NCBI GenBank assembly: GCA_035601835.1
Contig: DATNNM010000018.1
Coordinates: 133,890 to 197,889 of the forward strand
Reading direction: 5' to 3'
Length of the DNA: 64,000 nucleotides
Source: Candidatus Tumulicola sp.
GTDB taxonomy: Bacteria > Vulcanimicrobiota > Vulcanimicrobiia > Eremiobacterales > Eremiobacteraceae
Shown piece by piece: positions 54,239 to 64,000 of the stretch. Made by a program: the position numbers and the translations under genes. The notes under the pieces are model-generated. The model worked only from the letters and a program-made list of their open reading frames with translations, was not told the DNA's origin and made no database searches. Position 1 is the stretch's first letter. Every line of letters starts with the position of its first letter.

Positions 54239-54310
<72 letters not shown>

Positions 54311-54935: not shown

Positions 54936-55010
54936 GGGCGCGTAGCTCAGGGGTAGAGCACTACATTGACACTGTAGGGGTCAGAGGTTCGAGACCTCTC
55001 GCGCCCACCA
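54936..55010 (+). tRNA. tRNA-Val (anticodon GAC), CCA encoded
   Basis: Manual cloverleaf: GGGCGCG acceptor, anticodon loop UUGACAC, T-arm AGAGG-TTCGAGA-CCTCT. Confidence 0.9.
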
Positions 55011-55265
55011 TCGGAAACCTTGATGCCGCGGACCTCCGTGGCTTTTTCATCCGGTGTGGTACCCTTACCACTATCCGAAAATGCTGACAGATGCTGACCG
55101 AATTTTGACCGCATTGCGGCGTCGACTTTGGTCGCCGCGCTCACGTCTAGCGCCGGCACGACGTGACTGTAAACGTCAAGCGTCATACGAGTTGTGCTGT
55201 GGCCAAGGCGATCCGCAACTACTTTGGGGTGAATGCCTTCGCTCAGCATTTCAGTCGCTGCGGTG
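55011..55265 (-). pseudogene. Tyrosine recombinase C-terminal remnant (copy 1)
   Basis: AATEMLSEGIHPKVVADRLGHSTTRMTLDVYSH (catalytic Tyr region). Homology to copy 2 stops at 55265, where Rhs sequence begins. Confidence 0.75.
55025..55047 (+). terminator. Intrinsic terminator after tRNA-Val(GAC)
   Basis: GCCGCGG-ACCT-CCGTGGC followed by TTTTT. A perfect-stem copy recurs at 60613..60635. Confidence 0.6.
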
Positions 55266-58200
55266 GATGCCAACAATCGGATCAAGACCGTGACGAGCAA
55301 TCCGACCGGCGTCTCACTGGTTTTTACCTACGACAGCGGGACCAACTGCGGCACGGGTGATCTCTGCTCGGCTCAGGAGTCAGACGGAAAGATTTGGAGC
55401 TATCAGTATCAGGATTTGGGGCCAAATCCGGGTGATCAGCACAACCTCACTCGGGTCACCGATCCGCTCGGGCACGTAGTAGAGCAAACCGCTTTCGCGC
55501 AGGTTCTGCAGTTCGGCAACTACTGTTGCATTAGCGTTCCGACGAGCCAGTCGACCGATGGCGGCCAGAATACGCTGACCTTCTCCTACGCCCTTTCGAA
55601 CAATGGGTATAAGACGTGGCTTCATACCACGGTTACCGATGGGCTGAATCGAACGACAGTTTATTATTCCGACAGCATACGCTTTGTGCTCATTAGCGTC
55701 ACGGGGACCATGACCGGCGGTGGCAATCAATCTGTCACCTACAACTACGATCCATACTTCCGCTTGATTTCGCGTGCCGATGGCAATAGCCACGCGACCA
55801 CATATGGCTATGGGCGCGACACAACCGCAAGCGGTCTTGGTTACTCATACATCATCCAAGCCATTCCCGGTCCGAACTCGATCACGGAGCAACTGGCGAG
55901 TGGGCTTAACCGCGTAACGAATATCTCATACTACGCGCTCGGTGACCTGCGACAAGATCTCCCAAACACCATTTCAGTCCCATCCGTCGACACCCCGGGC
56001 AACACGGAAACGATAACGGACACATTCGGCACCAACGGACTACTCACATCGCAAGCGACTCAGGGTTACATCGGGGGTTCCGCAACGACCTACACCACTG
56101 GATTTTCCTACGATACCAAGGGTCGACTTCAGCAGATTACGGGTCCGCGGACCGACGTCGTTCAGCACACCACTGTCGCATACTACCCAGACACTGACTC
56201 CGACATGGCGCGCCGCGGCCAACCCCAAACCATTACCGATGCACTCAGCCATGTCACCACGCTTGCAGCCGATGCAGCTCCTAACAATACGTACAACGTT
56301 TTTGGGAACCCTCTGAGCGTGGCGGACCCCAACGGTGTCGTTACCGACTTGAGCTATGATGCGCGCGGGCGAACGCTTTCCTCAACCATCAAAGGAGTGA
56401 CGGGCGATCCGACAGCGCTGACAACCTCTTACGTTTACGACGCCGCCGGCAGGCTCATCAAAATCATACGACCGTTGCTCAACGGGTTGAGTCTAACCTA
56501 CGATACGAGCAATCGGTTAACGGACATGACCCGGTTCACCGCCAGCACGAATCTCCTGGAGGAACAAATCGTGCTTGGCTACGATGTCATGAGCCAGTTA
56601 ACTTCCCGGCTCGCTCAGGCATGCACGACGCCGGCAGTTTCGTGCAGCGCGTGGAGTACAAAGCAACAAGAGAGCTTCCAGTACGATAGCTTCGGGCGTG
56701 TGAAAGAAATCGACCACCCGGTCCCGAGCGGATCAAAAATACTCTACGGCTACGATTTGGCGGGCAACCTTAACTCAATCCAAGACGAAAATCACAGCAC
56801 GGCGAACTCGACATACAACTATGATTTTGCCAACCGCCTCACCAGCGTCGTGCAGACGTTAGCGGGCGCGCCGGGCAATCAAATTACGACCAGCTTTGGG
56901 TACGACCTACACGACAATCTGAACTCGCTTATCGACCCCAACAGCAATCAGACCACGTACGCCTTCGACGACTTCGATCGGGTAAGGCAGCAGACGTCGC
57001 CGGTGAGCGGAGTCAGCACCTATGCCTATGATCCTGACGACAACCTGCTGACGTTCTCAGACGCCAATGGAGCGATGACCACGCGCAGTTTCGATGCGCT
57101 AGACCGCGTGCTGTCGGCGATGTCTGTGCGCAGCGGGCTCACGACAGAGACCGTGAATTGGGCCTACGACGACGCCACCAGCGGCAACTTCGGCATTGGG
57201 GTCTCAAGAACATCACAGACCCCTCGGGATCGACGACCTATACCTACGACCGGCGCGGGCTGCTCAAAACCGAAGCGCCCACTATCTTGGGCAACGCGTA
57301 TTCTCTGGCCTATGCTTACGACGGCAACGCCAACCGCACGAGCATTACATACCCGGACGCCAACGCCGTCATGTATACCTTTGATTTTGCCGACCGGCCT
57401 CTCTCGGCGACTTTGGGAAGCACGACCTTTGTGTCGAGCGCTACATACGCGCCGTTCGGGCCGCTGACCACCCTTTCGTTCGGGAACGCAAGGACACAGA
57501 CGCTTACTACGACCTCCGCTATCGCCCGACCGAGAACAAGTTGTGTTGCGCGAGACACGGAGCGTCGCTCGCGGACTACACGTATGCCGAGGACGGGGTT
57601 GGCAATATCACGGGAATCACCGACACCGTGAGCACGGGATTCAACCGGACGTTTGCCTACGACGACCTAAATCGGCTGATCACGGCCAATTCTGGCGCCT
57701 CCCTGTGGAATTCCGGCTCCTACACCTACGATTCCATGGGCAACATGAAGACCTTGGGGTTGGGCAGTGCTCGGACGGCGACATTTAGCTATTCAGGCAC
57801 GCTTCCAAAACTAACGTCGGTGACAGAGAACGGCACGCCGCGATCTGTGGCCTACGACGCGGTGGGCAACGAGACGGCTGTGGGCACGGCGACGTATGCC
57901 TATGGCACGCGCAACCAGCTCGAATCGGGCGACGCGCTCACCTACACCTACGACGGTTGGGGGCGGCGGCTTGTGACCTCTGGCAGTTTGGGCACCCGCT
58001 ACTCGTTCTTTACTCCTGGCATGACGTTGCTCTCGGAATCAGCACTGACGATTTCCGGAAGACCTGCGATCGCTTACAAATACATTTGGTTCGCGGGCAG
58101 GCCCATCGCGCAAGTGGACGGCGCGGGCACGCACTGGACCTTCTCCGATCACTTGGGAACGCCTGAGATTCAAACCAATAGTAGCGGCGCGATCGCTTAC

Positions 58201-58848
58201 CAGGCAGAGTACGAACCGTATGGAAAAGTCTTCGCGTTGCGCTCGGGCGACGTGCACCAGCCGCTACGACTGCCAGGCCAAGTGGCGGAACAATTCGACA
58301 CTGGGGCGAATGGTGCGACCGAGCGAAACTATAATGTGTTTCGGTGGTATCGGCCGGGATGGGGTAGGTATTCGCAGGCAGATCCGATTGGGCTAAACGG
58401 CAATTATAATCTTTACCGGTACGTGGAGGACGATCCTGTATCTCTTGATGACCCCTTCGGTCTCAGGCATCTCACGCCGTGCGAAAAGTTAGTGCTCCGT
58501 CCCTACATTCCGCAAATCGACTTGAACAATGCGAATATTCACGAGGGTGAGGTTCCTTGGTGGCTCGGTAAAGACTATGGGGGAGTCACGCTAGAAAATA
58601 ACATCTATTTTCGTCCCGGCGTATATGACCCCACGACCTCTTATGGGTTGGCTCTGCTCGGGCACGAATCGTTTCATGTTGGTCAATACCGAACGGGGAT
58701 GACGCGTGCCGATTATCTGTGGGAAGGATTCTGGCATGGCGGTGGTCAGGAAAATAGGTACGAAAAACCGGCGTACGCCTTGCAACGACGCATCTATTCA
58801 GATTTGGTCAAAGCAGGATTTGAGGGCTGCGAACTATGCGGACGATAA
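55233..58848 (+). pseudogene. Rhs/YD-repeat polymorphic toxin, N-terminally truncated, two frameshifts, DUF4157-like HExxH C-terminal domain
   Basis: YD repeats throughout (YDARGR, YVYDAAGRL, YAYDPDDNL). Reading frame changes at about 57200 and about 57506 relative to copy 2. Core ends at DPVSLDDPFGL (58464). Confidence 0.8.
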
Positions 58849-59312
58849 AATACGCGGCTGCAGCATGTTTGGCAGCGGCGCTGAGTTTCATGGGATGCGC
58901 GCCATCTGTCAACGAGAGTCCTTGGCAGGGGCACGAACCCGTTATTGACGCCTTCTTCCAGCAACCGAGCAAAATTCAAATGTTGACATTCAAGTCCTAT
59001 TCGCTTGACGACCAGTATGCGATATTCTTGTACGGCAACCAAGTCCTCGAACCTCCCGCGATACAGTTAGCGACGGCGTTTGGTGCGGAAGGCCAGCAGG
59101 TTGTCCCATATCTGTCCGCTCATCTTGAGCGCACGTCCCGTGACCTAACAGTCAGGGATTTGGTTTTCGTATTTCGCGAGATGGATCGCCAGAGAGCATA
59201 CAATGTCGGCAAAGACACGACACTGATGAATCTCTTGAGGGAGGCCGTTTCCAAAATGAAGGATCCGGTTTGGAAACGGATTGCTGAGAGAGACTTAGCT
59301 GTTCTCAGATGA
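58836..59312 (+). CDS. Lipoprotein; candidate cognate immunity protein for the DUF4157-like Rhs tip
   Basis: Overlaps the Rhs stop by 13 nt. Lipobox LSFMGC. AT-richer than the Rhs core. Confidence 0.5.
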   Translation: MRTIKYAAAACLAAALSFMGCAPSVNESPWQGHEPVIDAFFQQPSKIQMLTFKSYSLDDQYAIFLYGNQVLEPPAIQLATAFGAEGQQVVPYLSAHLERTSRDLTVRDLVFVFREMDRQRAYNVGKDTTLMNLLREAVSKMKDPVWKRIAERDLAVLR

Positions 59313-59343
59313 GAAAGTTCCATCGCAAAAATTCATCAGGGCG

Positions 59344-59470
59344 GTCTCCGGGTACGACGTCGTGGGTAATCTGCAGACCGTTCAAGACGAGAACCCCTCG
59401 AGCGCCAACACGAAGTACGCGTATGACGCGGCGCATCGTTTGCTCTCAGCCACCCAAACGCTTACCGGCA
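59344..59470 (+). pseudogene. Short Rhs-core fragment (third, diverged copy)
   Basis: VSGYDVVGNLQTVQDENPSSANTKYAYDAAHRLLSATQTLTG parallels YGYDLAGNLNSIQDENHSTANSTYNYDFANRLTSVVQTLAG of the two long copies. Confidence 0.5.
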
Positions 59471-59830
59471 CGTTCAAACTCTTCCTCTCGCCGTATGGCG
59501 GCTTTCGCTCGATGCAGCTTGTCCGTTCCCTAGCCTTCGTTAGCAGTGAGGGCCACCACCGAATTGCGTATGTGTATCATGCCACCTTCGAGAACGGTGA
59601 CTTGCTGTACACCTTTTCCTTTGACAGCGACGGCTTTGTGGGGGGTGTGGCGGCTGGCAGACAAAAGAAGGTCAGTATATTTTTACCGTTAGCGCCTATC
59701 TAAACTCAACACATCGACCCTTTCGGTAACACGGTGTTCAAATCTGTACCGGGCAGTCGAGCTTGTCGCGGGTTTCAACGACCTGCCCTCTTATTGTGAA
59801 TGTTCGCGTTGAAGCGAGAGCGGTAGCACC

Positions 59831-60367
59831 TTGAAGCTGCGAATAGTGGGCCAAACGTCGCTCGGCCTTATGCTGGGGTTCATTCCAGTTGCTCTGTTTT
59901 GGTGGTACTGCACACAGATTAAGGTGCATTATGTCCTAAGTTCGAACATCGAGGGCGAGGGAGTCCTGTGGACATCTTTCTTAATGACGGCGTCATGGAT
60001 GCTGTGTGCCACGCCGGCATATATCGTCGTCTTCAAGCGTCCGGAGAAAGTTTCGCGCTTGGTTGCCCCGTTGCTCTTGGTACTATTGTCGCCCCTATTC
60101 GTGATATCGGCGTTTAACAGCATCGAGCAGATCGTTTGTTATGGAGCCATCGATCACCCGAGGTTGCTCTCTTGGTTTAGAGCGATGTCAGGCGATGTCG
60201 TTTACCTGCTGCTCGCATCTGTGCTAACTTGGCTAATTGGATTCGCGGCGGCAGGTGTTCGCTGGCGAGGTACGCGTGCTGAGCCAGTCCTTGGAATATT
60301 AGCCATGTTGCTAGTCCTCGGCTATGTGATTTTTTGGATCTGGTCCTTGAACCATATCCGTTGGTGA
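59831..60367 (+). CDS. Hypothetical polytopic membrane protein (possible orphan immunity gene)
   Basis: 178-aa ORF with 5 or more hydrophobic helices in AT-richer DNA. Start uncertain (TTG 59831 or ATG 59870). Confidence 0.45.
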   Translation: MKLRIVGQTSLGLMLGFIPVALFWWYCTQIKVHYVLSSNIEGEGVLWTSFLMTASWMLCATPAYIVVFKRPEKVSRLVAPLLLVLLSPLFVISAFNSIEQIVCYGAIDHPRLLSWFRAMSGDVVYLLLASVLTWLIGFAAAGVRWRGTRAEPVLGILAMLLVLGYVIFWIWSLNHIRW

Positions 60368-60553
60368 GGTCACCTTGCCCAAGAGGCGATTTGGCCGGAA
60401 TCGAGGGTTGTAGCATCACAGGAAGGGCGCCCAGATTAACCGAGATAAGTGCTGACCAAATGCTGACCAACAGTCGGATACGGGGGCGAATTCAATAGCA
60501 CTCAACAACACGGGGGCTGCCGCAATCACTCGAAAAGTGTCTTCTTCCGCTCT

Positions 60554-60598
60554 TTGACACTGTAGGGGTCAGAGGTTCGAGACCTCTCGCGCCCACCA
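60554..60598 (+). repeat. 45-bp copy of the tRNA-Val(GAC) 3' part (att repeat)
   Basis: Identical by eye to 54966..55010 (ttgacactgtaggggtcagaggttcgagacctctcgcgcccacca). Confidence 0.85.
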
Positions 60599-60900
60599 TC
60601 AGAAACCATGATGCCGCGGACCTCCGCGGCTTTTTCATCCGCTCCAGCACCCCTATCACTACCCGAAAATGCTGACAGATGCTGACCGAATTTGGACCGC
60701 ATAGCGGTATCCAACTTGAGCGCCGCGCTCGTTTCTAGCGCCGGCACCACGTGACTGTAAACGTCGAGCGTCATGCGCGTTGTACTGTGGCCGAGGCGAT
60801 CTGCTACTACTTTGGGATGAATGCCCTCGCTCAGCATTTCTGTCGCTGCGGTGTGGCGAAGCGAATGTGGGCCGATACTGCCAATGCCAACCCTTACAGC
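60599..60900 (-). pseudogene. Tyrosine recombinase C-terminal remnant (copy 2, longer)
   Basis: GPHSLRHTAATEMLSEGIHPKVVADRLGHSTTRMTLDVYSH (box II plus catalytic Tyr). No N-terminal domain. Confidence 0.75.
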
Positions 60901-60903
60901 TAG

Positions 60904-63900
60904 AACGGGCTCAATCGCTTGACGAATATCTCGTACTACCCGCTCGGTGACCCGCGCCAAGATCTCCCAAACATCATCTCTATCCCGTCCGTCGACACCC
61001 CGGGCAACACGGAAACGATAACGGACACGTTCGGCTCTAACGGACTACTCGCATCGCAAGCGACTCAGGGTTATATCGCGGGTTCCGCCACCGCCTACAC
61101 GACCGGATTTTCCTACGATACCAAGGGTCGGCTTCAGCAGATCACGGGTCCCCGGACCGACGTGGTGCAGCACACGACTGTCGCCTATTACCCAGACAGC
61201 GACACCGACATGGCGCGCCGCGGTCAACCCCAAACAATCACCGATGCACTCAGCCATGTCATCACGCTTGCAGCCGATGCAGCTCCTAACAATACGTACA
61301 GCATTTTTGGGGATCCGCTGAGTGTGGCGGATCCCAACGGCGTCATCACCGACTTGAGCTATGATGCGCGCGGGCGAACGCTTTCCTCAACGATCAAAGG
61401 GGTGACAGGCGATCCGACACCGCTGGCAACCTCCTACGTCTATGACGCCGCGGGCAGGCTCACCAAAATCACACGACCGCTGCTCAACGGGTTGAGCCTG
61501 ACGTACGACACGAGTAATCGGCTGACCGACGTGATACGGTTCACCGCCAGCACGAATCTCCAGGAGGAGCAAATCGTGCTTGGCTACGACGTCACGAGTC
61601 AGTTGACTTCCCAACTCGCTCAAGCATGCACGACGCCAGCGGTTTCGTGCAGCGCGTGGAGTACAAAGCAGCAGGAGACCGTCCAGTATGACAGCTACGG
61701 GCGCGTAAGAGAAATTGACCACCCTTTCCCGAGCGGATCGAAGATCTTGTACGGCTACGATTTGGCCGGGAACCTAAACTCAATCCAAGACGAGAATCAC
61801 AGCACGGCGAACTCGACATACAACTATGATTTTGCCAACCGCCTCACCAGCGTCGTGCAAACGTTGGCAGGTGCGCCGGGCAATCAAATCACGACTAGCT
61901 TCGGGTACGACCTGCACGACAATCTGAACTCGGTTATCGACCCCAACAGCAACCAGACCACGTACGCCTTCGACGACTTTGATCGGGTAAGACAGCAGAC
62001 GTCGCCTGTGAGCGGGGTCAGCAGCTACGCCTACGACCCCGACGACAACCTCCTGACGTTCGCAGACGCCAACGGAGCGATGACCACGCGCACTTTCGAT
62101 GCGCTGGACCGCGTGCTTTCTGCGATGTCTGTGCGCAGCGGTTTCACGACAGAGACCGTGAATTGGGCCTACGACGACGCCACCAACGGCAACTTCGGCA
62201 TCGGGCGCCTCAGGAACATCACCGACCCCTCGGGATCGACAACCTACACCTACGACAGGCGCGGTCTGCTCAAGACCGAAGCGCCCACGATCTTGGGGAA
62301 TGCGTATTCGCAGGCCTATGCGTACGACGGCAACGCCAACCGTACGAGCGTCACCTATCCGGACTCCTCAGTGGTTAATTATACCTTTGATTTCGCGGAC
62401 CGGCCACTATCGGCGACCCTGGGAAGCACGACCTTTGTGTCATCGGCGAGCTACGCGCCGTTTGGGCCGCTGACCAGTCTTTCGTTCGGGAATACAAAAA
62501 CGCAGACGCTCAGCTACGATCTCCGCTATCGCCCGACCGAGAACAAATTGTGTTGCGGGAAACACGGAGTAGCGCTCGCAGACTACACATATGCCGAGGA
62601 CGGGGTTGGCAACATCACGGGCATCACCGACACCGTGAGCACGGGATTCAACCGGACGTTTGGCTATGACGACCTCAATCGCTTGATTACCGCCAATACA
62701 GGCGCTTCGCTGTGGGTCACGGGCTCATACACTTATGACTCCATGGGCAACATGAAGACCTTGGGGCTGGGCGGTTCTCGGACTGCGTCATTCAGCTACT
62801 CAGGAACACTTCCAAGACTCACGTCCGTGACGGAGAACGGCACGCCGCGATCTGTGGCCTACGACGCGGCGGGCAACGAGAGCAACGTGGGCACGGCCAC
62901 GTACGGCTACGGCACGCGCAACTTGCTCGAATCGGGCGACACGCTCACCTACACCTACGATGGCTGGGGGCGGCGTCTTGTGACCTCTGGCAGTCAGGGC
63001 ACCCGCTACTCGTTCTTTAGTCCTGCCACGGCGCTGCTCTCGGAATCGGCGCTGACCATGTCCGGAAGACCTGCTATCGCTTACAAATACATTTGGTTCG
63101 CGGGCAGACCCATCGCGCAAGTGGACGGCGCGGGCACGCACTGGGCCTTTGCCGATCACTTGGGAACGCCGGAGATTCAAACCAATACCAGCGGCACGAT
63201 CACTTACCAAGCAGAGTACGAGCCGTACGGAAGAATCTTTTCGTTGCGCTCGAGCGACGTGCACCAGCCGCTTCGACTGCCGGGCCAGGTGGCGGAGCAA
63301 TTCGACACTGGGGCCAATGGCGCGACGGAGCGTTCATACAACAATTTCCGCTGGTATCGGCCGGGCTGGGGAAGGTATTCTGAGGCGGATCCGCTTGGGT
63401 TGGTCGCTGGAGCGAACGGATATCCTTACGTTTTGGATAATCCCGGCGGGAGAATCGACCCTCTGGGGTTGCACCCCGGACCGAGTATTACGGCGGTGGG
63501 CTATTTCCAGTATGCCCTCGATCCCGTCTACAGGCAGCAGTACAACGACTTGCTACTTGGGGCGGGTATTGTTGGGCTAAATGTGGTTCCCGTCGTTGGT
63601 GAGGTCTTGGATGTCGTTGCCGCGGCCCGGATCGCCGGCCTGGGCGCAGCACTCCTTCGTTTGGAACAATCGGCGCAAGAGGAAGAACCTGGTCCGCTGT
63701 GTCCGAACTCTCCAATTGTAATCGGCGAAAACATGAATCGCGTCCGTGCGGCCGCCGCCGAATTAGGAGCTAGGACCTACTCGGGATTCCCAAACGCAGA
63801 GGGTCTAGCCGGTTCAAACCTTGCGGAGGCGCAACTTTCCCATAACGCCGAGTGGCTTCTTGGAGAACTTCGGGGAGGAAGCACTGTAATAGACATCGGG

Positions 63901-64000
63901 CCGGACATCCGCGGGTTAAATTACCCGGGAATAACCAGTGACAGTTACAGTTTGGAGCTGCAGCTCCTCGAGCAGTTTCCCAACACGCTAATGTTTGGGG
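60904..64000 (+). CDS. Rhs/YD-repeat polymorphic toxin cassette, 5'-truncated, open to the window end, distinct C-terminal domain
   Basis: Frame with codons starting at 60904, 60907 and so on, open from the TAG at 60901 to 64000. The track lists no stop-bounded ORF in this frame, and a hand translation of 63472..64000 found no stop. Collinear with copy 1 from about 55902. Core ends at GRIDPLGL (63471). Confidence 0.7.

Follow-up and report, generated by a model that had tools for sequence, protein, structure and literature searches.

How did several truncated toxin genes come to stand in a row behind a single tRNA gene? This question is raised by a stretch of 64,000 nucleotides, hereafter the window, from the genome of Candidatus Tumulicola sp. 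(assembly GCA_035601835.1, contig DATNNM010000018.1, positions 133,890 to 197,889), an uncultured soil bacterium of the Eremiobacterota, a phylum known mainly from metagenomes. At one tRNA-Val(GAC) gene of this organism at least five broken-down integrating elements lie in a row, and three of them still hold the tip of an Rhs toxin and an antidote gene. The initial annotation of the window, made from its letters alone, had proposed serial integration of related elements whose cargo is a toxin tip plus an immunity gene. We keep the first part of that proposal and revise the second: it is probable that at least five integrating elements accreted in tandem at tRNA-Val(GAC) by site-specific recombination and then decayed by deletion, so that all five are now without an integrase.

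Attachment-site copies at tRNA-Val(GAC)

ARAGORN and Rfam both place tRNA-Val(GAC), the integration target, at 54936..55010 on the plus strand, in agreement with the initial annotation. A repeat search identified the part of the gene from the anticodon loop onward (54966-55012, plus strand) as the first of a series of attachment (att) site copies, counted here as copy 0. Its 45 nt from the anticodon loop to the CCA end occur exactly twice in the window, at 54966 and, as had been annotated, at 60554 (0 expected, judged by shuffles), where they begin a 47-nt copy (att copy 1, 60554..60600, plus strand) that marks the boundary between unit 1 and unit 2. The annotation had advised extending the window, and we carried its numbering on along a metagenome contig from ENA to window-equivalent 79,087, about 15 kb beyond its end; positions above 64,000 are given in these extended coordinates. 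This revealed six att copies of 44-47 nt (54966, 60554, 64760, 69789, 70630 and 71046), a third Rhs tip and two small units. Tyrosine-integrase elements that target tRNA genes carry the tRNA 3' part as a direct repeat at both ends, and this is what we find here (47 nt, six copies). The last copy (71046) has lost one base, has no match to the CCA end, no arm repeats and a terminator of its own, and we take it for the tRNA's original end, which the first integration would have displaced.

The features listed by the annotation behind the tRNA (terminator, arm repeat, minus-strand integrase remnant and plus-strand Rhs gene) are all present. A terminator-like hairpin, rich in G+C and with a T run, was detected by a hairpin scan on the plus strand at the left end of unit 1 (55025..55050, the hairpin itself at 55025-55042) and in unit 2 (60613..60635, hairpin at 60613-60630), and it recurs after att copies 1-3. 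Two conserved direct repeats, candidate arm-type binding sites for the integrase, accompany the copies at fixed distances on both sides. The P' arm-type repeat AAAATGCTGACAGATGCTGACCGAA stands about 110 nt after the core (55078..55102 in unit 1 and 60666..60690 in unit 2, both on the plus strand, by repeat search) and is also found in units of other metagenome loci. The second, the P arm GCTGACCAAATGCTGACCAAC, precedes each internal att copy by about 100 nt (0 expected by chance); in the window it lies at 60451-60471, inside a conserved right end of unit 1 (60431..60553, plus strand) delimited by repeat and pattern comparison. The integrase frame (54947-55300 and 60554-60906, both on the minus strand) has no stop before the att core and runs through the hairpin and the tRNA 3' part (…GGRERSRTSDLYSV); therefore the end of the integrase gene overlaps tRNA-Val(GAC), and the P' arm repeats lie within its coding tail (FGQHLSAFS). 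The same arrangement is seen at two related loci (L126, 10001-11284; L127, 10001-11296). The G+C content drops from 60-67% upstream of the tRNA to 51-61% within the array, which we count as a sign of foreign DNA.

The array is not an assembly artefact, because four independent assemblies agree: one from ENA, two from JGI and one from Logan show 100% identity where unit 1 joins unit 2 and at the later junctions, from unit 2 as far as the flank. The ENA contig (375,842 bp) also encodes the putative immunity protein of unit 1 and is identical to the window over 15,165 bases, and exact protein matches come from an NCBI metagenome-assembled genome named Candidatus Tumulicola sp. (HXM19604 to HXM19613). 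This agreement bears on the idea that the locus is an ordinary array of orphan modules behind a main rhs gene, or that an artefact hides the main gene. Classical orphans are likewise 5'-truncated cores with linked immunity genes (PMC3967940). However, a full-length rhs upstream, which the annotation had allowed might emerge from a corrected assembly, is absent from all four, and no rhs was found among the upstream open reading frames (ORFs) examined or by comparison of the window with itself. Upstream of tRNA-Val(GAC) are instead genes for a membrane protein, tRNA-Val(CAC), MsrA, a mannose-6-phosphate isomerase-like protein and housekeeping functions and, farther away, an AcrB-type pump, a TonB-dependent receptor and other ordinary genes. 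Moreover, att copies, arm repeats and integrase remnants stand between successive tips, and a search of about 15 billion proteins gave no full-length Rhs with more than 60% identity. We find an ordinary orphan array, or a hidden main gene, scarcely credible.

As for the immediate neighbourhood, tRNA-Val(CAC) (54239-54310, minus strand) and tRNA-Val(GAC) (54936-55010, plus strand) are paired but point away from each other, separated by a small gene for a membrane protein. The pairing is kept, at a different spacing, in two more distant metagenome loci (L103 and L107).

Rhs cores, toxin tips and truncation junctions

Unit 1 (54966-60553) comprises an integrase remnant (int'), a frameshifted rhs core, a toxin tip (CT1), immunity gene 1 and further remnants, and unit 2 (60554-64759) comprises int', an open rhs core, a second tip (CT2) and a 167-residue partner. 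The repeat finder and BLASTN recover both collinear blocks that had been annotated, at 88.7% identity over 300 gap-free nucleotides (54966-55265 versus 60554-60853) and at 88.1% over about 2.5 kb (55902-58392 versus 60907-63399). The units are homologous outside the Rhs core as well as within it, a point on which the annotation had made its reading depend. Their DNA homology stops at the ADP(I/L)GL segment (58378-58395 in unit 1, one base off the annotated figure); a second DPxGL motif (DPFGL, DPLGL) ends at 58464 in unit 1 and at 63471 in unit 2, and the C-terminal sequences beyond it are unrelated, as annotated.

The core of unit 1 (55266..58464, plus strand) matches RHS_repeat (PF05593, E=1e-32) and lacks about 295-420 N-terminal residues. 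Compared with unit 2 it has two 1-nt deletions, near 57200 and 57506, and is broken into frames 0, 2 and 1; these are not random sequencing errors, since an independent JGI contig is 100% identical across both sites. Gene callers start this ORF at an ATG at 55233, in the antisense of int'. The core of unit 2 (60907..63471, plus strand; PF05593, E=1e-39) lacks about 510-630 N-terminal residues. A stop at 60904-60906 immediately precedes its frame, which then runs uninterrupted through 1031 codons to 64014; upstream there is no start codon in frame. The frames of both units also match the RHS core family (PF03527) in Pfam. With RHS/YD shell repeats and a core that ends in DPxGL before a variable C-terminal toxin, these genes have the make-up of the Rhs/YD-repeat proteins.

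Unit 3 (64760-69788) is composite and carries the third Rhs tip. It contains ORFs of 330 and 153 residues and a 5'-3' exonuclease gene truncated at about codon 190. A P arm at 66121 is orphaned, lacking a core behind it, and from 67637 there is a third Rhs core piece of 0.8 kb that is 86% identical to unit 1. This piece, from which about 1050 N-terminal residues are missing, is fused to the truncated exonuclease gene and ends in a tip (CT3) with an AHEVTHA motif, accompanied by a lipoprotein-like partner. Homology to an intact exonuclease gene, which belongs to a related unit in another host (L096), breaks off precisely at the exo'::rhs junction. Three overlapping JGI contigs (L107 4915-7881, L112 389-4798 and, as reverse complement, L096 364-2701) look like one array in a divergent host, the third unit of which holds this intact 5'-3' exonuclease gene, 86.6% identical to the truncated one of unit 3.

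The missing N-terminal lengths were measured against six full-length relatives (50-60% identity). Full-length Rhs relatives have 1429-1728 residues, and some begin with a signal-peptide-like sequence. Set beside P0077-P0085, the array's proteins lack the N-terminal export/trafficking and DUF6531 region of a complete protein, and the tips are gene fragments. The closest full-length proteins, P0077 and P0078, are encoded in ordinary chromosomal contexts without integrase calls. That the tips might recombine with a full-length rhs, as the annotation had suggested, has no support so far, with the nearest full-length protein 60% identical. The 90% cluster has seven members, and reading them all showed five to be fragments or variants of the array and two to be SRC proteins (run ERR1700674). 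One of the two, P0201 (1268 residues), combines the N-terminus of unit 1, the core of unit 2 and the tip of unit 3, and the other, P0200, is a mosaic of units 1 and 2. SRC is presumably a protein-level (Plass) assembly, able to create chimeras; the two proteins, whether real recombinants or chimeras of this kind, were treated as uninformative and not counted as recombinants.

Another question regards the origin of the three units from one another. One ancestral unit could have been duplicated in place, by unequal crossing-over at att or rhs repeats, with the tips swapped later by recombination; the units are collinear, and two homology blocks flank a variable segment of tip and immunity gene, as such a history would leave them. 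Yet synonymous divergence (dS) between the Rhs cores is 0.43 for units 1 and 2, 0.63 for units 1 and 3 and 0.61 for units 2 and 3, with ratios of nonsynonymous to synonymous divergence (dN/dS) of 0.12, 0.07 and 0.10, respectively (for the integrase remnants of units 1 and 2, dS is 0.33 and dN/dS 0.28). Because dS is 0.43-0.63 at a dN/dS of about 0.1, the cores are not local duplicates; they separated long ago as working genes. Their pattern of substitution points to divergence under purifying selection in separate lineages, and to separate acquisitions. In addition, the int'::rhs breakpoints differ on both sides (unit 2 retains about 50 nt more of int, unit 1 retains 636 nt more of rhs), unit 3 has another fusion partner, and similarities at the left ends group the units differently from those at the right ends. 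We rejected duplication in place on dS and dN/dS; it is largely refuted, and we give it very little credence.

The three truncation junctions are all different, lying at two codons of int' and in the 5'-3' exonuclease gene, with no clear microhomology, and as far as sequence can tell the three tips were truncated independently. Since the junctions differ and the cores evolved as functional genes, we favour the truncation of complete rhs-immunity modules over a tip and immunity gene that travelled as cargo. The three cut points and three partners fit the former better, and the cargo proposed by the annotation is probably an over-reading of decay products.

What remains of each module is a tip followed by a putative immunity gene that overlaps or abuts the toxin stop. 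CT1 (58465..58848, plus strand) is an HExxH domain of the eCIS_core/DUF4157 type in Pfam, and the gene that overlaps its stop, putative immunity gene 1 (58836..59312, plus strand), encodes 158 residues with a lipoprotein-like signal (…SFMGC). CT2 occupies 63472..64000 on the plus strand and runs to 64014, just beyond the window. Many unrelated proteins, 150 to 4135 residues long, end in the same domain, a spread that would be expected of a polymorphic toxin domain. CT2, CT3 and the three immunity candidates have no match in Pfam, the immunity candidates none in PHROG, and CT2 and CT3 none in PDB sequence searches. The tips are probably silent, because they lack a signal peptide and N-terminal domains, unit 2 has no start codon and unit 1 is frameshifted; a scan for sigma-70-like promoters upstream of the rhs frames found none, although the consensus may not hold in this phylum. 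Selection probably acts through the putative immunity genes, which would protect against neighbours deploying matching toxins.

Further along unit 1 stands the remnant of another module (59341..59703, plus strand, Pfam), in which a short, diverged stretch of Rhs core (59341-59460) has been joined to a DUF3887-like ORF. The 40 codons of this stretch have, by protein sequence, diverged far more than the three main cores have from one another, and it looks like a fourth, older toxin-module remnant. A hydrophobic, probably membrane-bound protein of 178 residues (59831..60367, plus strand) has no family match in Pfam or PHROG and is a possible orphan immunity protein. The two small units at the far end are unit 4 (69789-70629, 0.84 kb), with one cupin-like ORF of 137 residues, and unit 5 (70630-71043, 0.41 kb), with one DUF2277 ORF and no arms.

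The element family and the possible mobility of its units

No unit has a functional integrase next to its att copy. Unit 1 retains a non-functional remnant (55016..55265, minus strand) equivalent to about residues 320-405 of a 405-residue integrase reconstructed from a related locus (L005), and unit 4 only residues ~373-405. The remnant of unit 2 (60604..60906, minus strand) has lost the first 306 residues and kept the HxLRH and tyrosine region; it is 82% identical to residues 307-421 (approximate limits) of the 427-residue P0221 and aligns to positions 121-168 of 172 of the Pfam family Phage_integrase. A first search returned proteins of at most 202 residues, as if only remnants existed. This was rejected when the L005 relative, full length except for one frameshift, was reconstructed and used as a query, which yielded intact integrases of 427-431 residues. 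Two of them, P0221 and P0222 (L126 and L127), overlap tRNA-Val(GAC) at their 3' ends. Their neighbours are a large terminase gene or an HTH_17 gene with a RecQ-like helicase and toxin-antitoxin genes, and therefore the parent elements look like prophages or islands. The serial integration at one tRNA that the annotation had proposed is borne out by the six att copies, the arms on both sides, the integrase remnants, these intact relatives at the same tRNA, the shorter array of a related strain (see below) and the divergence of the cores.

Searched for in JGI metagenomes, the P arm pattern turned up at 34 loci. In about 20 of them the P arm is followed by the tRNA core at the same distance, with a common right end of about 125 nt (P arm … CACGAGAAGTACCGTAATTACTCG … CTTCTTTCGCTCT) and other cargo; soil contigs in which it stands before the tRNA-Val core, alongside unrelated cargo, are L096, L097, L100, L101, L103, L104, L106, L107, L112, L113, L115, L120 and L122. 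Several of these loci have 2-4 att copies that delimit units of 1.3-6.6 kb, each with 1-3 unrelated genes. The P-arm loci held partial matches to the array's integrase family but no intact member. Two loci from another sample (ERZ795073, equal coverage), L004 (1465-1977 and 8589-8638) and L005 (157-1571 and 5837-5928), each combine a second att copy with a truncated or frameshifted integrase of the family; their cargo includes genes for guanylate cyclase, NB-ARC/TPR and cupin proteins.

The strain comparison rests on L099, a JGI contig of 2.6 kb with the upstream flank, an intact tRNA, unit 4, the degenerate last att copy and the downstream flank, and without units 1-3 and 5. It matches the array genome at 480/503 positions in the upstream flank, at 834/835 in unit 4 (69789-70629, compared as L007 12004-12844 versus L099 534-1368) and at 97% in the downstream flank. 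Where unit 4 meets the last att copy, L099 carries the 1-nt deletion of that copy, and a k-mer mis-join is unlikely at this end because the copy-specific deletion lies only 13 nt into the core; the tRNA/unit 4 junction crosses 47 identical bases, across which an assembler could have collapsed the copies. The related strain appears, then, to have only the 0.84-kb unit 4 at tRNA-Val(GAC). If L099 is real, the locus varies by whole att-bounded units, and a unit without an integrase is much younger than the divergence of its hosts. The near-identity of unit 4 suggests its recent transfer.

These observations invite the thought that the truncated units are themselves the mobile entities: mini-elements without an integrase that are moved in trans by a phage-type integrase belonging to their family, the tRNA serving as an integron-like platform and the Rhs tip with its immunity gene as a travelling cassette. 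Units 1-4 have kept both arm repeats while nearly all else of the parents is gone, the 125-nt right end is the most conserved stretch over about 20 loci, many units of which hold 1-3 genes only, unit 4 (0.84 kb, one gene) matches L099 far better than its flank does, and the definition of a cis-mobilizable element (PMC5704250) fits the units. On the other hand, units with Rhs were seen in one genome population only and always in the same arrangement, and neither circular junctions nor insertions at a second site were detected. Decay in place is suggested by the three junctions, which differ and are apparently illegitimate; one seems to span a former unit boundary (the orphan P arm at 66121). 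The match lists show no intact integrase of the family on contigs of the array's organism. We consider such mobile units possible but rather doubtful. A wider form of the idea would make tRNA-Val(GAC) in the Eremiobacterota an integron-like capture site for mini-elements of 0.8-6 kb (125-nt right end, tRNA core and P' arm). Prophage-type integrases acting in trans would insert and excise these and pass them from host to host. Rhs tip and immunity gene would be cassettes that need no main rhs, and unit 1, with its ATG in the antisense of int', might be an expression slot after recombination at the core. This we hold to be unlikely.

If tandem accretion and decay is the correct reading, elements of the same family would have entered serially, a tyrosine integrase recombining attP with that 3' part of the tRNA which begins at the anticodon loop and ends with CCA. 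With every such event the array would have gained one direct repeat of 44-47 nt, the newcomer providing the tRNA with a fresh 3' end and pushing older copies away from it. At least three of the elements probably bore a complete Sec-type rhs toxin gene and its immunity gene next to the right end. In units 1 and 2 a deletion may then have run from within int to within rhs; that of unit 3 would have started in the exonuclease gene of one unit, removed an att copy and ended in rhs, probably that of the next unit. Deletions ending inside rhs would survive if the downstream immunity gene were worth keeping and the large rhs lay just before it; they would leave an att site with both arm repeats, and hence a cis-mobilizable look, together with a toxin tip and an immunity gene.

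Several points weigh against this reading. That three deletions all end inside rhs needs the added assumption of selection for the immunity gene, and the immunity candidates 1-3 have no family assignment. The 3.1-kb frame of unit 2 is wholly open, which is unexpected for a long-dead fragment. Arms kept in almost every unit, and a unit 4 that is 99.9% identical despite 95% identical flanks, hint at ongoing mobilization. Rhs genes were absent from the 33 other metagenome loci (all but L116, the window's organism). They were also absent within 10 kb of related integrases in all 80 loci kept from a survey of one genome per species, a set outside which the window's own genome falls and in which the array's tRNA sequence is present at only one locus. 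Scans of viral contigs with the Rhs protein and with the full-length integrase gave nothing useful, and among the genome, metagenome and viral loci no intact element combined the array's integrase with a complete rhs.

Known systems and biological meaning

Tandem accretion with decay has been described for integrative elements (PMC5704250), in a scheme in which cis-mobilizable elements (CIMEs) have lost their integration and transfer genes and kept attL and attR; units 1, 2, 3 and 4 are in this state. As in the islands related to ICESt1 and ICESt3 of Streptococcus thermophilus (PMC5704250), repeated integration at the 3' end of an RNA gene has left one direct repeat per element, residents decay to att-flanked units without an integrase and newcomers integrate alongside. 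Comparable repeated integration, again with one direct repeat per element, is reported for the tandem ssrA islands of Dehalococcoides (PMC3146451). Unlike these systems of integrative and conjugative elements and CIMEs, the array resides in an uncultured member of the Eremiobacterota, the intact members of its family are prophage-like rather than conjugative, and three units carry truncated rhs tips. A CIME is excised or transferred when a related element supplies the integrase; for the array there are indirect hints of this, namely the lack of units 1-3 and 5 in L099 and the 99.9% identity of unit 4.

The tips themselves resemble the orphan rhs-CT/rhsI modules of the Enterobacteriaceae (such as Salmonella LT2 STM0292; PMC3967940) in their 5'-truncated core, a tip after DPxGL, a linked putative immunity gene, the lack of export signals and the occurrence of several modules in a row. 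They differ in that no near-identical main rhs lies upstream or, so far, anywhere, and in that the modules do not abut directly: att copies and integrase remnants separate them, their cores are 85-88% identical, and they are fused to unrelated DNA. A similar pattern of older immunity genes left in a row by successive acquisitions is reported for the sequential displacement of type VI secretion system effectors in Vibrio cholerae (PMC5361080); the arrays described there lie downstream of the structural genes of that system, whereas the tRNA-Val units are joined at att and have no secretion locus nearby.

Two further labels were considered and rejected. The rAID-1 clusters of the Bacteroidales (bioRxiv 10.1101/471110), for which protection from the toxins of others is the proposed benefit, are likewise horizontally acquired immunity arrays of lower GC content, linked to a tyrosine recombinase and with repeats between their units. 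They have an intact XerD-like recombinase at the head, with co-oriented immunity genes behind it, and short intergenic repeats; the array has neither such a recombinase nor such repeats, its repeat being a tRNA 3' part with arms, and it retains large toxin fragments. With no intact recombinase, what is shared is only low GC and several putative immunity genes. An integron, in turn, is defined by intI with attI and a promoter at its head and by cassettes that end in attC hairpin sites. Neither the array's nearest upstream genes nor the large upstream ORFs examined yielded a recombinase gene, and the repeats are parts of a tRNA with arm sites.

Tandem accretion with decay and orphan Rhs modules are both known; their combination at this locus is unusual but explainable, and we did not find it in the literature searched. 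The locus points to another way in which orphan Rhs tips and immunity genes can come to form arrays: mobile elements integrate repeatedly at a specific site and decay, instead of modules being displaced behind a main gene that is resident there. The locus also defines an element family by its integrase, 47-nt core, two arm repeats and 125-nt right end, present in about 20 metagenome contigs and forming multi-unit arrays at one tRNA, which makes the mobilization of integrase-less units in trans testable. To our knowledge, this is an early look at the traffic of polymorphic toxins in the Eremiobacterota. If the immunity genes do protect their host, the locus would play in soil the part that acquired interbacterial defence clusters play in gut Bacteroidales.

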